64,000 nt of DNA from an uncultured Candidatus Actinomarina sp. GTDB lineage: Bacteria > Actinomycetota > Acidimicrobiia > Actinomarinales > Actinomarinaceae. Positions 37,064 to 44,072 of this stretch are shown piece after piece. A model generated the notes under the pieces. That model searched no databases. It saw only the letters and a program-made list of their open reading frames with translations, and had not been told where the DNA came from. Made by a program: the position numbers and the translations under genes. The first letter of the stretch is position 1, and every line of letters starts with the position of its first letter. The stretch is from the NCBI GenBank assembly GCA_902596545.1, contig CACJUH010000004.1:25170-89169 (forward strand), in the 5' to 3' direction.

Positions 37064-38158
37064 TTATGAAGTCATACTTTTTAATTTTTCATATTCAAGT
37101 TTTAAATTTTCATTTACTTCATTATCAAGCAAACTACTTATTTCAAAAATTTTTCCTAACTTCCAGAATCCCCACAAAATATAAGTCTTCAAAAAATCTG
37201 AAGAATTTGTGTACAATTTCAAAAAAAAATTAAAAGTACTTTTATTAGGATTATTTGTTAATGCAATGACTGCATTTCTTTTTAAATAATCGACATTTCT
37301 TTTAGGAATATAAAACCAATAATAATTTTTGAGTAATACTTCATCATTTGTTTCAAGTAAATCTTCTAGATTTACTTGAAATTCATTTTTTGTTTTAATT
37401 TTAATTTTATTACTTTGACCAGGTGGACATGATATCAAACATTCATCACAACCATAGAATCTATTTCCAATTGATTCCCTCATATCGTACGGAATTATTT
37501 CAGGCGACTGAAGCCAATAAGATATACATTTATTTGAATCTAGTTTGTATTCATTATCCAATGCACCTGTTGGGCAGGAAATCTGGCATAAGTTACATTC
37601 TCCACATGAGTAAGTTCTTTCATCTGTAGACTGGAAATTAGTTTCAACATAAACTGTTCCTAGTAGTTGCCATGGACCAATACCAGGACTCAACATCATT
37701 GTGCTTCTCCCCTGCCATCCCATCCCAGACTTTTCAAAAAAAGATCTATCGTAGTGTTTTGGATTATCAATAAATGTTTGGTGCTTAATATTTAATTCAT
37801 TAAATATGTCTTCAAATTGATTGATTATTTTTTTCAAAGGTAAATAAAAATCTTGTTGTGCAAATCTTGCTATCTGACCATATCCTATATTTGTTAAATT
37901 TGAAGTATTTACCTTGTTTTTGTAGTCATATGCAAAAATTAGAGCAGAATTGGCCCAATCAAATTTATCAACAAGACCTGAATAGTCTGGATTAGAGAAT
38001 GTAAATTTCATGTTCGCATGTTGATTTTGCTCCTTTACTTTTTTGATTTGATCAGAATAATTTAAACCGGTAGGTACTGATACAACTCCAATAGACACAT
38101 CAAGTGGAATATCTAGTGAATTTTCTATTATGAAATTATTAAGATTTATATCTTTCAT
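37064..38158 (-). CDS. queG: Epoxyqueuosine reductase
   Basis: [51 protein letters not shown]. Confidence 0.88.
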
Positions 38159-38187
38159 TTTTTTTTGATTTTACTATAGTTATTTTA

Positions 38188-38238
38188 ATGAAAAATTTAG
38201 CTGTATTCATTTCAGTATTAGTGCTATTACTTATTTAG
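38188..38238 (+). CDS. ilv attenuator leader peptide MKNLAVFISVLVLLLI (16 aa)
   Basis: Manual translation; 10 of 16 residues are Ile/Leu/Val, including the last 7; directly followed by two hairpins and ilvB. Confidence 0.85.
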   Translation: MKNLAVFISVLVLLLI

Positions 38239-38262
38239 CGCTCATTTTGCTGTGATGAGCGC
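38238..38262 (+). promoter_or_regulatory. Candidate antiterminator hairpin of the ilv attenuator
   Basis: 8-bp stem GCGCTCAT/ATGAGCGC starting on the last base of the leader stop codon and overlapping the terminator's 5' base. Confidence 0.7.
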
Positions 38263-38287
38263 CTCCCAAATCGGGAGGTTTTTTTTT
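38261..38287 (+). terminator. Intrinsic terminator (attenuator) upstream of ilvB
   Basis: CCTCCC-AAATC-GGGAGG followed by 9 T. Confidence 0.9.
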
Positions 38288-38313
38288 AGTAAAGATGGAG
38301 TAATTTAGTTTTT

Positions 38314-40026
38314 ATGAGTAAAGAACAACTTACAGGTGCAGAATTAGTTATTAGAGGTTTAGAGTACCTTAATGTATCAACAGTTTTTGGAGTTCCTGGT
38401 GGTGCAATCTTACCTGCATATGATCCATTATACGATAGCCCTATACGACATATTCTGGCAAGACACGAGCAAGGTGCTGGCCACATGGCTGAGGGATATG
38501 CACAATCAACTGGAGAACTTGGTGTTGTAATCGCAACTTCTGGACCTGGAGCTACAAATCTTATAACTCCTTTAGCAAATGCATTGATGGATTCCACTCC
38601 TCTGTTAGCTATTACTGGTCAAGTAGCTTCTGAAGCAATTGGTAATGATGCTTTTCAAGAGGCATACACTGTCGGGCTTTCTATGGCTGCTACAAAACAC
38701 AACTATTTAATAACTAATGCTTCTGAAATACCTCAAGTGTTAAAAGAGGCAAAGTATATTGCAACTTCAGGAAGACCTGGTCCTGTTTTAATTGATATTC
38801 CAAAGGATATTTTAAATCAAAAATCTGATTGGGTTGAACCAGGTCCACTTGATTTACCAGGATACAAACCTACATTAGAACCAAATCCAAAAATGATTCA
38901 GCAAGCAGCCAACTTAATTAAAAATTCAAATAAACCGATACTTTATGTTGGTGGCGGAATTATTCACTCCAAAGCAAACCAAGAACTTTTTGACTTAGCA
39001 ACTAAATTTAATATTCCTGTTGTTACAACATTAATGGGTAGAGGTGCGTTCCCTGATGGTCATGAGTTATGTTTAGAAATGCCTGGGATGCATGGAAATT
39101 ATACAGCTACAACCTCTATACAAAAATCAGATCTGCTTATTGCTATAGGTGTTCGATTTGATGATAGAGTAACTGCTAATCCTTCATTTTTTGCACAAAA
39201 TGCAAAAGTAATTCATGCTGATATTGATCCTGCTGAAATTGGAAAAGTAAGAGAAGCTCAAGTACCTATAGTTGGTGATGCAAAGAGTGTGATATTAGGT
39301 CTTATTGATGCTCTTGGAGATACAAAACTTAATACTGAAAATTGGATAAACGAATTAAATAGTATGAAAACTGAATTTCCACTTTCTTATAATCAAAACG
39401 AAAATGGTCCTTTGAAAGTTCCGTTTGTTCTTGAAGAGCTTCAAAATTTAACTGAAGAAGAGGCAATTGTTGTATCAGGTGTTGGACAACACCAAATGTG
39501 GATTTCACAACATTGGAATTTTACTGAACCAAATACTTGGTTAAATTCAGGGGGTCTTGGAACTATGGGGTATTCATTACCTGCAGCTATTGGTGCTAAA
39601 ACTGCATATCCTGAAAAATTGGTACTTGCTCTAGATGGAGATGGTTGTTTTCAAATGACTTGTCAGGAATTGATTACTGCCTCTACAGAAAATATACCAG
39701 TCAAAATTGTAGTATTTAACAATGGAAATCATGGAATGGTTAGACAGTGGCAAAAAATATTTTACAATAGTAAATTCTCTGCATCTGAATTAGGTCATGT
39801 AGTTCCTGATTATGTAAAGCTAGCTGAGTCAATGGGTGCTGTAGGTTTAAGAATGACTAAAAAATCAGAAGTAAAAAATGTCTTTTTAGAAATGTTAAAA
39901 ATAAATGATAAACCTGTGTTAATTGACTGTGTTGTAGATCCTGAAGATATGGTATTTCCTATGGTCCCAGCGGGTGGTAGCAACGACCAAATAATTTTAA
40001 ATGAAGAGGATTTAAAAAATTTATGA
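38314..40026 (+). CDS. ilvB: Acetolactate synthase large subunit
   Basis: FGVPGGAILP, RHEQGAGH, TSGPGATN, GVRFDDRV, GGLGTMG, DGDGCFQM, NNGNHGMVRQWQ. Confidence 0.97.
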   Translation: MSKEQLTGAELVIRGLEYLNVSTVFGVPGGAILPAYDPLYDSPIRHILARHEQGAGHMAEGYAQSTGELGVVIATSGPGATNLITPLANALMDSTPLLAITGQVASEAIGNDAFQEAYTVGLSMAATKHNYLITNASEIPQVLKEAKYIATSGRPGPVLIDIPKDILNQKSDWVEPGPLDLPGYKPTLEPNPKMIQQAANLIKNSNKPILYVGGGIIHSKANQELFDLATKFNIPVVTTLMGRGAFPDGHELCLEMPGMHGNYTATTSIQKSDLLIAIGVRFDDRVTANPSFFAQNAKVIHADIDPAEIGKVREAQVPIVGDAKSVILGLIDALGDTKLNTENWINELNSMKTEFPLSYNQNENGPLKVPFVLEELQNLTEEEAIVVSGVGQHQMWISQHWNFTEPNTWLNSGGLGTMGYSLPAAIGAKTAYPEKLVLALDGDGCFQMTCQELITASTENIPVKIVVFNNGNHGMVRQWQKIFYNSKFSASELGHVVPDYVKLAESMGAVGLRMTKKSEVKNVFLEMLKINDKPVLIDCVVDPEDMVFPMVPAGGSNDQIILNEEDLKNL

Positions 40027-40496
40027 GTGAAAGAATTTTATCAGTTTTGGTTGAAGATAAACCTGGTGTATTAGCTAGAGTTGCATCTACTATTTCAAGA
40101 CGAGGTTTTAATATAAATTCTTTGTCTGTAGGACCTACTCACATAGAAGGCAGATCAAAAATGACAATTGTTACTGAACTTGATGCAGTAGAACAAGTAA
40201 AAAAACAGCTCAATAAATTAGTTAATGTTATAAAAATTGTTGAGCTAGATCCAGACATGACAATCGAAACTGAAGTTTTATTATTAAAAGTGTCAATAAA
40301 TAAAGATAGCCAAACATCTGTAATTGAAAAAGCTAGTCTCTCAGGAGCTAATTCAGTAGATGTAGGCCAAGATTATGCAGTTTTTGAACTTACTGGTTCT
40401 TCAAAAGAATTAAATAAATTTGAGGATTTAATGAAACCGTTTGGAATAATTGAAATGGTTAGAGGTGGAAGGATTGCTATTCAAACAAATTTGTAA
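40023..40496 (+). CDS. ilvN: Acetolactate synthase regulatory subunit
   Basis: ACT domain [11 protein letters not shown]...[18 protein letters not shown]. Confidence 0.96.
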
Positions 40497-40504
40497 GGAG
40501 AGAT

Positions 40505-41521
40505 ATGGAAACAAAAATTATATACGATTCATCAATTGATCAAAATCTAATTAAAGATTTAAAAGTAAGTGTTATTGGATTTGGTAGTCAAGGTCATGCA
40601 CATGCATTAAATTTACATGATTCAGGTGTAGATGTTACTGTTGGCCTTAGAGAGGATACAGAATCATTCTCAAGAGCACAAGAAATGGGTTTAAAAGTTG
40701 AAAACTTAGCAAATGCCGCATCTGATGCAGATGTTGTAATGTTGCTTCTTCCAGATCAGATTATGGCAGATGTTTATAACTCTGAGATTGCTGACAGTAT
40801 GAAAGAAGGTGCAACTTTACTGTTTGCTCATGGATTCAACATTCATTTTAACGAGATCATTCCAAGAGAGGATTTGTCTGTTGGCATGGTTGCGCCGAAA
40901 GGTCCAGGTCATTTATTACGAAGAACTTATGAAGAAGGAAGTGGGATGCCGTGCTTAGTAGCTGTCGAAAAAGACTCAAGTGGACACACACATGAAGTTG
41001 CCCTTTCATATGCTTCAGCTATAGGTGGCGGACGTGCTGGCATTCTAAACACAACTTTTAAGGAAGAAACAGAAACTGATTTATTTGGGGAACAAGTAGT
41101 TCTTTGTGGTGGATTAACAGAATTGATTAGAAATGGTTTTGAAACACTTGTAGAAGCTGGATACCAACCTGAAAGTGCCTACTTTGAAACTCTTCATGAA
41201 GTTAAATTAATTGTTGACTTAATGTATGAAGGTGGTTTTGAGTGGATGAGGCATTCAATTTCAGATACAGCTGAATACGGTGACTTTTCACGTGGTTCAA
41301 GAATTATTACAAGTGAAACAAAAAATGAAATGAAAAAAGTGCTAGAAGAAATACAATCTGGTGCATTTGCAAAAGAGTGGATGTCACAGGCAAGAGAAGG
41401 TGCACCATTTTTAAATCAAAAGCGAGAAGAGGCTTCAGCTCATCAGATTGAATCAATTGGAAAAAATTTAAGAAATATGATGCCTTTTTTGGATGCTAAG
41501 GATATTAAAAAAGATAAATGA
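40505..41521 (+). CDS. ilvC: Ketol-acid reductoisomerase
   Basis: [36 protein letters not shown]; AAGGAG SD. Confidence 0.98.
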
Positions 41522-43008
41522 GTGAAGATAAACTTGTAATATTTGATACTACGCTTCGAGATGGAGAGCAAAGTCCGGGTATTGCTTTAACTCCATCAGA
41601 AAAACTTTTAATTGCACAGCAGTTAGAAAAGCTTAAAGTTGATGTAATTGAAGCAGGATTTGCTGCATCCTCCCCTGGTGATTGGGAAGGTGTTAATCTA
41701 ATTGCAAAAAATATTAAAAATTCTACAATTGCATCTCTTGCAAGATGTCATCCAGATGATATTGAGCAAGCTTGGGAAGCAATCAAAGTTGCTAAGGATT
41801 CAAGGATTCATGTCTTTACCTCTACATCAGAAATTCATATGGAACATATGCTACGAAAGACAAAGGAAGATATTCTTAAAGACACAAGAGAATCTGTAAA
41901 ATATGCAAAAAAATTATGTCAAGATGTTGAGTTTTCAGCACAAGATGCAACAAGAACAGATAAAGACTTTTTAATAGAAGTGTTAAAAATTGCTGTCGAA
42001 GAGGGGGCTACAACTATAAATGTTCCCGACACGGTAGGTTATGCAACTCCAAAGGATTATCTAGATCTTCTTCAATCAGTATATGAAGATGTTAAGGGGG
42101 GTAATGAAGATGTTATTATTTCTACTCATTGTCATAACGATCTTGGATTAGCAGTTGCTAACTCTCTTACTGCAATAACTGCAGGTGCAAGACAAATAGA
42201 AGGTGCAATTAATGGTATTGGAGAAAGAGCTGGTAATACTTCAACAGAAGAAATCATTATGGCAATAAAAACAAGACAAGATCAGTTTGGAGTAGATATT
42301 AAAGCAGAAACTACTGAAATTTTTGAAACTTCTAGGTTAGTTTCTAAATTAACGGGATACCCTGTTCAATACAATAAGGCAGTTGTTGGAAAAAATGCTT
42401 TCAGTCACGAGTCTGGAATTCATCAACATGGTTATTTAAGAAATACTACGACTTACGAAATAATGTCCCCGGACTCAGTAGGGCAAGAGGCAAAAATAAT
42501 TTTAGGTAAACATTCTGGTCGGGCTGGATTTAAAGATGCTCTAGACAATTTAAATATAAGCCTTGACGATGATTCATTTAGTAATGCATTTGATACTTTT
42601 AAGAAAATTGCAGATAGAAAGGGTGAAATAGTTGAAAATGAATTAAGAGCTATTGTTGGACAGGTTGAAAATAAAGAAAATTCAACAAAGTTAGTATCTG
42701 TATCTGTAAATAGTAAGGATGAATATGCATCTGCAAAAGTAACACTCAAGGTAGGCGGTAATGAAGTGACAGAAGAAGCAACTGGTGATGGAATGATTCA
42801 TGCAGCATTTACAGCAGTAAAGAAGATATTAGATTCTGATGCAACATTGATTGATTACCGTGTAGAAAGTATTACTAAAGGTTCAGATGCAACTGCAGAA
42901 ATCGTTACAATAATAAATGATGGTCATTTGATGAAACAGGGACGTGCAGTATCTACAGATGTAGTTCAAGGTTCAGTTGAATCATTTCTAAATGCATTAA
43001 ATAAATGA
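41518..43008 (+). CDS. leuA: 2-isopropylmalate synthase
   Basis: [33 protein letters not shown]-terminal regulatory domain. Confidence 0.95.
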
Positions 43009-44072
43009 GTAAAACTTTTAATATCTCACTTCTCCCCGGAGATGGTACTGGTCCTGAAGTAGTCAATGAAGCAGTTAAAGTACTCAGTAAAACCTCATCT
43101 TATTACGATACGCAATTCAATTTCTCTCAGAATGATCTTGGAGGAGATAGATATTTAAATACTGGAGATTTAGTTACCGATAATGATATTAAACAATTTC
43201 AAGATTCTGATGCGGTACTTCTCGGCGCAATTGGCCACCCAGATGTAAAGCCTGGAATATTAGAGCAAGGTATTCTTCTCAAACTTAGGAAAGAGTTTGA
43301 CCAATATATTAACCTCAGACCAGTTGTTTTATATCCCGGTGTAGAAACCCCACTTGCCAATAAAGAGCCTGAAGATATTGATTTTATTGTTGTCAGAGAA
43401 AATACAGAAGGATTATACGCTGGAGCTGGAGGTTATATTCATTATGGAACTGAAAATGAAATAGCAACTCAAGAATCAATCAATTCATATCATGCAATTC
43501 ATCGATGCATAAAATACGCGTTTGAATATACAAAGAATAACAATAGAAAAAAAATTACACTCTGTGCAAAAACAAATGTACTAACTTATGCACATGATTT
43601 ATGGGAAAGAATCTTTTACGATGTTGCAAAAGATTATCCTGAAATTGAAACCGATTATGGACATGTTGATGCAATTTGTATGTGGATGGTTAAAAATCCA
43701 GAATGGTTTGACGTTATTGTTACAGATAACATGTTCGGAGACATTATCACTGATTTAGGCGCAATGATTCAGGGAGGAATGGGAATCGCTGCAGGCGGGA
43801 ATATCAATCCTTCAGGAACATCAATGTTTGAACCTATAGGAGGATCTGCACCAAAGTATACAGGTAAAAATATTATTAATCCTCTTGCTTGTATAGGAGC
43901 TGGTGCAATGATGGTCAAAGAATTAGGTGAAGAAAAATATGCATCCGACATTGAAAAAGCAATCATCAATACGGCAATTAAATTAGATTCTCTTTCAGCT
44001 GGGAAAATGGGAATGTCTACTGAAGAAGTTGGTAATTCAGTAGTTGAAGAACTATCTAATTTAAATGAGTGA
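43005..44072 (+). CDS. leuB: 3-isopropylmalate dehydrogenase
   Basis: [38 protein letters not shown]; follows leuA. Confidence 0.9.

Follow-up and report, generated by a model that had tools for sequence, protein, structure and literature searches.

Among the described regulators of branched-chain amino-acid operons, one that has been studied experimentally in an actinobacterium is the ilvBNC leader of Corynebacterium glutamicum (leader peptide IlvL), an attenuator of the "fast" three-hairpin type (Morbach et al. 2000, as cited in PMC11857589 and PMC10272879). In case of this leader, transcription starts one nucleotide (nt) from the leader AUG, and the RNA forms anti-antiterminator, antiterminator, and terminator hairpins (2025 mutational study, PMC11857589). 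Antiterminator and terminator abut and share only the bases GCC; mutations there, at the terminator base, raise expression 7-8 fold (PMC11857589). The Corynebacterium "ilvB-II motif" comprises a uORF (upstream open reading frame) of 15-17 codons, rich in isoleucine, leucine, and valine (ILV), together with a terminator, and represses a reporter in rich medium (PMC10272879). For other actinobacterial ilvB genes, leader peptides and terminators were predicted without a clear antiterminator (Seliverstov et al. 2005, PMC1262725). Here we describe the intergenic region upstream of ilvB in a stretch of 64,000 nt from an uncultured Candidatus Actinomarina sp. (contig CACJUH010000004.1, positions 25,170 to 89,169; the whole stretch is referred to as the window), in which we consider it likely that transcription of the ilvBNC-leuAB operon is controlled by a three-hairpin, ribosome-mediated attenuator. 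Its closest characterised analogue is the ilvBNC attenuator of C. glutamicum; the Actinomarina element follows the same logic, with GC as its boundary.

All parts of the leader are located on the + strand. A -10 element TATAGT (38175-38180), contained in the palindrome ACTATAGT (38173-38180), is situated 7 nt (TATTTTA) before the ATG of the leader open reading frame (ORF; 38188..38238, stop codon 38236-38238). This ORF consists of 16 codons and UAG (ATG AAA AAT TTA GCT GTA TTC ATT TCA GTA TTA GTG CTA TTA CTT ATT TAG) and encodes MKNLAVFISVLVLLLI. Ten of the 15 residues after Met are ILV, compared to a background of 25.7% in the window (binomial P = 0.001), and only 1.6% of the 614 short ATG ORFs of the window reach this fraction. 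According to sequence and folding, the putative antiterminator, hairpin A, is formed by 8 base pairs (bp) between 38238-38245 and 38255-38262 (GCGCUCAU/AUGAGCGC, in DNA letters GCGCTCAT/ATGAGCGC) with a loop of 9 nt and a folding energy of -11.7 kcal/mol. It begins with the stop codon's G, and the two bases at its end, G38261 and C38262, are common to the intrinsic terminator. The latter has a stem of 7 bp (GCCUCCC/GGGAGGU, 38261-38267 and 38273-38279), a loop of 5 nt (AAAUC), and a U9 tract (38279-38287); it folds at -12.8 kcal/mol, or at -8.4 kcal/mol if cut to 5 bp, and was the top match of a consensus terminator scan of 11 kb. The leader as a whole (109 nt) folds at -30.3 kcal/mol versus -19.2 +/- 2.9 kcal/mol for dinucleotide shuffles (z = -3.9), of which 0 out of 200 were as stable. 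The initial annotation had placed the -10 element, the ORF, both hairpins, and their two shared bases at exactly these coordinates. A bidirectional or convergent terminator was considered for these hairpins and discarded, since the gene upstream is read divergently and no T run follows hairpin A in the reverse complement.

Hairpin A is not the minimum free energy (MFE) structure of the leader. Without a ribosome, this is a third, conserved structure of -17.5 kcal/mol, which was missed by the two-hairpin model of the initial annotation. In this protector (anti-antiterminator), codons 7-13 (38206-38226) form an extended, interrupted helix with 38236-38259; in detail, 38206-38211, 38213-38217, and 38220-38226 pair with 38254-38259, 38248-38252, and 38236-38242, respectively. 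The stop codon and hairpin A, with its 5' arm, its loop, and most of its 3' arm, are engaged in this way, and the terminator is left whole. The protector is the MFE structure in nearly all relatives in the Actinomarinales, with registers shifted by 5-6 nt between subfamilies. Due to these shifts column covariation fails for the protector: RNAalifold applied to 23 aligned leaders found nothing beyond hairpin A, which is invariant, and one small local stem. In its place, per-sequence swap and synonymous-recoding tests were used. Native duplexes between ORF and hairpin region have a mean of -16.8 kcal/mol compared to -13.0 kcal/mol for subfamily chimeras, and 0 out of 20000 permutations reach the native value. 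Synonymous recoding according to the codon usage of the window results in means of -6 to -10 kcal/mol, compared to -14 to -19 kcal/mol for the native sequences (p = 0.001-0.03 in each of 12 representatives, Fisher combined p = 9e-19). Both tests support that the protector pairing is under selection. Within the paired codons, GUG is a rare valine codon (6.5% of the Val codons of the window); it is invariant in the 23 aligned leaders of the main group and pairs with GCGC. The existence of the protector is indirect evidence that the formation of hairpin A matters for the outcome.

The likeness to C. glutamicum comprises the ilvBNC genes downstream in an actinobacterium, a start at or 1 nt before the AUG (predicted in case of Actinomarina), the lack of a Shine-Dalgarno sequence, an ILV-rich uORF (15-17 codons in Corynebacterium), three hairpins, and an abutting boundary between the last two, which is GCC there and GC (38261-38262) here. 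The initial annotation had been concerned about an overlap of only 2 nt; due to the GCC boundary of C. glutamicum, this concern has an experimental precedent. However, sequence similarity is not detectable between the two leaders, and the comparison with ilvB-II was made by its published description. The Actinomarina uORF stops right at the antiterminator's foot, and its last codons form the protector with the 5' arm, the loop, and part of the 3' arm of the antiterminator, whereas the Corynebacterium uORF spans P1, the loop of which is paired with the 3' shoulder of the terminator in one published model. Furthermore, the Actinomarina element is about 100 nt long and lies 26 nt from ilvB, compared to about 150 nt upstream in C. 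glutamicum, and the Actinomarina operon additionally includes leuA and leuB.

The classical attenuators, i.e., those of Escherichia coli ilvBN (ivbL) and ilvGMEDA (ilvL) and the trp, leu, thr, and phe leaders, are similar in that the peptide is rich in the regulating amino acids and the ribosome footprint chooses between protector (1:2), preemptor (2:3), and terminator (3:4). In E. coli, however, the preemptor shares a whole strand with the terminator, as opposed to 2 nt in Actinomarina, and the leaders have a 5' untranslated region (UTR) with a Shine-Dalgarno sequence, whereas the Actinomarina leader appears leaderless. A classical antiterminator partner for the 5' arm of the terminator (CCUCCC) was looked for in the leader sequence, and no G-rich segment is present upstream. 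With the ilvB leaders of Mycobacterium and Streptomyces, the locus has in common a short ILV-rich ORF and a terminator in the absence of an obvious classical antiterminator, but their ORFs are reported to overlap the terminator hairpin, whereas a separate hairpin is situated between stop codon and terminator in Actinomarina. No Rfam family reached its gathering score in the window (E up to 10) or at eight related loci, and no match was related to ilvB; the best match to a leader family was Phe_leader with 20.2 bits versus a gathering score of 55 (E = 3.3).

Metagenome contigs were scanned in an unbiased manner with a degenerate pattern 84 nt inside ilvB, none of it in the leader. This ilvB probe yielded 116 loci, 50 of which carry an Actinomarinales-type leader (29 unique); most of the others belong to acI-type freshwater actinobacteria. 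In every Actinomarinales leader, a -10 hexamer is located 7-8 nt before the AUG. The initial annotation had suggested the conservation of the peptide composition as a check, and indeed the ORF is open and in frame in all 29 unique leaders and keeps its ILV-type composition at lengths of 10, 11, 15, or 16 codons. Its stop codon is always UAG, hairpin A starts from the G of this codon, and hairpin A and terminator adjoin without a linker. Positions of start and stop are fixed relative to promoter and hairpin A, and insertions and deletions in the ORF are multiples of three. Counted back from the stop codon, positions -6 to -2 are occupied by Leu or Val in 100% of the Actinomarinales leaders, -8 is Ser or Thr, -9 is mostly Ile, and -1 varies freely among I, M, K, N, T, and Y. 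Fixed Leu/Val codons next to a variable last codon fit sensing codons rather than a conserved peptide. The terminator is kept through compensated or wobble changes (CCUCCUU/AAGGAGG and CCUCCC/GGGGGG). In three Actinomarina loci, the ORF has been retained at 16 codons (MKKSVNLISLLVLVLM, MKNLIVLILEVVLLLK), as have the overlap between UAG and hairpin A and the terminator. In a sister subgroup, hairpin A is replaced by a different stem, GCGCACUUA/UAAGU-U-GCGC.

Similar arrangements occur outside the Actinomarinales. Considering 105 unique leaders of Actinomarinales, acI, and other Acidimicrobiia, the start of hairpin A falls -3 to +2 nt from the stop codon's end, and hairpin A and terminator are separated by 0 nt in 25 out of 25 Actinomarinales leaders, 0-1 nt in 24 out of 31 acI leaders, and 0-7 nt in the other Acidimicrobiia. 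In the latter, short uORFs ending with ..ILVLP, ..LLLIE, ..LLVVT, or ..VVVT are followed by a GC-rich hairpin starting from the stop codon and a CCCUCC/GGAGGG terminator. The acI-type leaders (L083-L196, e.g., L086 and L115) encode MSTTFVVVI and similar peptides behind TTGAC-N17-GAGAAT-6-AUG. Their hairpin of 11-12 bp shows rich covariation, the terminator follows after 0-1 nt with no shared bases, and the MFE structure is without a protector helix. As the acI hairpins abut without shared bases, it is the tight packing and not the overlap that is conserved in the wider family.

The effect of a translating ribosome was modelled by constrained folding, with a mask on the RNA that extended 12 nt past the first base of the codon in the A site. 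If this codon is one of codons 9-13, UCA GUA UUA GUG CUA (S V L V L; 38212..38226, + strand), the probability of the terminator's closing pairs decreases from P ~1.0 to 0.45 (C62-G78) and 0.13 (G61-U79); these codons constitute the predicted sensing window. If the A site holds one of codons 14-16 or the stop codon, the ribosome covers hairpin A's 5' arm and the model yields a complete terminator, which for the stop codon is the outcome that the initial annotation had proposed. In case of codons 2-8, parts of the protector persist, by which the terminator stays complete. A stall on any Ile, Leu, or Val codon, as assumed in the initial annotation, is therefore not sufficient: in the model, only A-site codons 9-13 free hairpin A, while stalls on the final L L I mask it. 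A window of three codons (-6 to -4) recurs across the family and moves by one codon if the footprint edge is set to +11 or +14. Both Ile codons (8 and 16) are located outside the predicted sensing window. Consequently the model does not support the claim that all three branched-chain amino acids are sensed; it predicts sensing of Leu and Val, whereas sensing of Ile is uncertain. The inner pairs of the terminator have P = 1.0 under every ribosome mask. In line with the doubt about switching efficiency raised in the initial annotation, the switch is predicted to be only partial at equilibrium, with a closing-pair probability decreasing from ~1.0 to ~0.45.

From these structures the following sequence of events can be proposed. 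Transcription would begin at the AUG (38188) or shortly before it, and the 16-codon leader, so we infer from the conserved reading frame, would be translated by a 70S ribosome. If no ribosome is present or the ribosome has been released, codons 7-13 would pair with the hairpin-A region, the terminator would form with 7 bp, and transcription would stop at U9. If Leu and Val are plentiful, a ribosome at UAG or on the last three codons would cover the 5' arm of hairpin A, again resulting in the full terminator. If charged tRNA-Val or tRNA-Leu is scarce, the A site would stall on codons 9-13, mask the 5' strand of the protector, and leave 38238-38262 free. Hairpin A would then form first, deprive the terminator base of G38261 and C38262, and abut the remaining stem without a linker; the terminator would be weakened in this way and RNA polymerase would read into ilvB. 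That hairpin A weakens the terminator and that the leader responds to amino-acid supply is what we infer from the combined data.

The short spacing between -10 element and AUG (7-8 nt given) recurs across three independent promoter types: the main Actinomarinales group has an invariant ACTATAGT followed by 7-8 nt and ATG, the sister subgroup a textbook TTGACA-16-CATACT-7-ATG, and the acI relatives the arrangement mentioned above. Judged by this geometry, the leader is probably leaderless, with transcription starting at or just before the AUG at 38188. In 12 metatranscriptome runs, contigs 95-100% identical to the window extend from the leader through the terminator into ilvB; thus, leader and ilvB are co-transcribed in nature. 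These data are assembled contigs, which are strandless and may include the 5' end of the divergent gene or residual DNA. Seven of the contigs start within 38188-38222, i.e., at 38188 (one contig, depth 14), 38199 (two contigs), and 38201, 38206, 38211, and 38222 (one contig each). Their 5' ends are consistent with a start at the AUG, without proving one. Moreover, the gap between the U tract and the AUG of ilvB amounts to only 26 nt, which leaves no space for a separate ilvB promoter. Since the upstream gene is divergent, transcription of ilvB must cross the leader terminator.

A contig of run X31 (depth 29) has U8 instead of U9 in the terminator tract, a natural length variation. Since ACTATAGT is a perfect palindrome, TATAGT is present on the minus strand, too, at 14 nt upstream of the ATG (38158) of the divergent queG-like gene, and may represent a shared, bidirectional -10 element serving this gene as well; low-depth RNA contigs from the queG side extend to 38174-38231. 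As a general promoter word, ACTATAGT was uninformative: the window contains three copies versus 1.0 expected, a number reached by 6 out of 100 shuffles, and neither of the other two copies precedes a long ORF by 6-8 nt. TAnnnT occurs 6-8 nt before the ATG in 15 out of 57 long ORFs of the window, and TATAGT-TACATAA-ATG at 2872 (2857-2874) shows the same geometry as the leader. The spacing suggests that leaderless mRNAs are common in this genome, the count being uncorrected for the AT-rich background.

Several observations weigh against the attenuator as proposed. With regard to the start site, six RNA contigs begin at 38146-38184, 4-42 nt upstream of the AUG, with depths of 2-14, and a strictly leaderless transcript is not established; the leaderless claim of the initial annotation agrees with the promoter geometry and with part of the contigs, which are no proof of it. 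None of the RNA contigs has its end at the U tract; partial termination would, however, be invisible in assembled contigs. Concerning the switch itself, hairpin A and terminator compete for 2 nt only. The combination of an 8-bp hairpin A and a 5-bp terminator (-20.1 kcal/mol) is nearly isoenergetic with that of 6 and 7 bp (-19.2 kcal/mol), and equilibrium folding results in an approximately two-fold effect only. Hairpin covariation, the other check suggested by the initial annotation, was observed for the terminator with its compensated or wobble changes, but not for hairpin A, the stem of which is invariant in the main group (RNAalifold, 23 aligned leaders). In acI and many relatives in the Acidimicrobiia, the hairpins occur without any overlap; therefore, base-pair competition cannot be the general mechanism of the wider family. 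Finally, mutations of candidate regulatory codons in the ilvB leader of S. coelicolor were reported to be without effect (PMC1262725). Nevertheless, the core of the initial annotation, an ILV leader in which the position of the ribosome selects hairpin A or the terminator, is supported by strong comparative evidence and by the experimental precedent in C. glutamicum, with its details corrected as described above.

The main rival concerns the sub-mechanism. Conceivably, hairpin A is no true RNA antiterminator but acts sterically, like a strap: located behind a stalled ribosome, it would hinder completion of the terminator stem inside RNA polymerase, as the 5' arm of the terminator emerges linker-free beside a bulky helix and a ribosome and the bottom of the stem cannot be completed, so that the shared GC would be incidental. 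The tight packing of all 105 unique leaders, the acI hairpins that abut without shared bases, and the nearly isoenergetic base-pair competition in the window are in good agreement with this explanation. On the other hand, the mutational data of C. glutamicum are explained by competition at the boundary, and linkers of 4-7 nt as in some Acidimicrobiia would weaken a purely steric effect. We regard a steric attenuator as rather unlikely for the window, and give the same low probability to a strap class including the relatives in the Acidimicrobiia and freshwater acI, in which a ribosome at the stop codon would open the hairpin and free single strand for termination.

Two further explanations dispense with amino-acid sensing by a ribosome. 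The 16-residue product could be functional as a small hydrophobic membrane peptide encoded in front of a leaky terminator, with ilvB expressed by constitutive read-through. The peptide is hydrophobic with a Lys-rich N-terminus and resembles a mini transmembrane segment, and leader transcripts or peptides can act in trans in other bacteria, e.g., peTrpL. However, its length (10-16 residues), sequence, and last residue (I, M, K, N, T, or Y) vary, unrelated ILV-rich peptides occupy the same site upstream of ilvB in acI (MSTTFVVVI) and Acidimicrobiia (..ILVLP, ..LLLIE, ..LLVVT), and RNA pairing constrains the choice of codons beyond the peptide sequence, all of which makes a functional peptide very improbable. 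A ribosome-independent RNA switch, e.g., a riboswitch of the guanosine tetraphosphate (ppGpp) class or a leader bound by a tRNA or protein, would require the ORF to be coincidental, and we consider it the most improbable explanation. Two or three alternative hairpins before a terminator would suit an expression platform too, and some ilvB genes are under control of ppGpp riboswitches, a class preceding ilvB in Firmicutes (PMC10272879). The absence of Rfam families at threshold from the window and the eight related loci speaks against it, as do the lack of conserved unpaired nucleotides from which a ligand pocket could be built (loop sequences are variable and covary with the codons), the changes of the ORF in threes, and the fixed position of start and stop relative to promoter and hairpin A. 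The ribosome-mediated attenuator with hairpin A as antiterminator thus remains the preferred explanation.

The genes downstream of the leader are ilvB (38314-40026, ATG at 38314), ilvN (40023-40496), ilvC (40505-41521), leuA (41518-43008), and leuB (43005-44072), which form an operon on the + strand (38314..44072). All five are matched by NCBIfam equivalog families above cutoff, confirming the ilvBNC-leuAB assignment of the initial annotation. The closest IlvB relatives occur in single-cell and metagenome genomes of Ca. Actinomarina (85-86% identity), followed by other Acidimicrobiia (<=64%). In the window, the 5' UTR of ilvB (38288-38313) is approximately 14 nt longer than in related Actinomarina loci, and the additional nucleotides create a mini-ORF AUG GAG UAA at 38295-38303. 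Its sole GGAG (38297-38300) is located 13 nt from the AUG, compared to GAGG or AGGG 4-7 nt from the AUG in the relatives. The G+C content of the window is about 30%.

Upstream of the leader, the divergent queG-like gene (37064-38158, - strand) matches the QueG tRNA epoxyqueuosine reductase family TIGR00276 with 172 bits, below the curated cutoff of 200. A gene for ilvD is located 23 nt beyond it on the same strand and thus not behind the attenuator. Within the queG-like coding region, a perfect inverted repeat of 15 bp, GTTTCAAGTAAATCT TCT AGATTTACTTGAAAT, followed by a T-rich run, was observed on the opposite strand at 37350-37382; it gave a terminator-like match and a weak, chance-level Rfam match (mir-2767, E = 0.87).

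Genomes of Ca. Actinomarinales have a size of about 1.1 Mb, encode two sigma factors, lack two-component systems, and have intergenic spacers with a median of 2-3 bp (PMC7771536). Very probably, a known kind of switch has been kept here in one of the most streamlined bacterial genomes. The mechanism is textbook, and the finding is useful for annotation and comparison rather than surprising; its interest lies in the retention and extreme compaction of the switch in a genome with almost no other regulation, and in the question of how abutting hairpins antagonise a terminator. For the latter, the packing of stop codon, hairpin, and terminator with linkers of 0-7 nt, which is common to these leaders and C. 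glutamicum, provides a natural series for the study of near-non-overlapping antiterminators. That a conserved intergenic region of 155 nt is given to a cis switch suggests that control of branched-chain amino-acid synthesis is worth keeping in these organisms. Such control would need no regulatory protein, which fits RNA-based regulation surviving genome streamlining.

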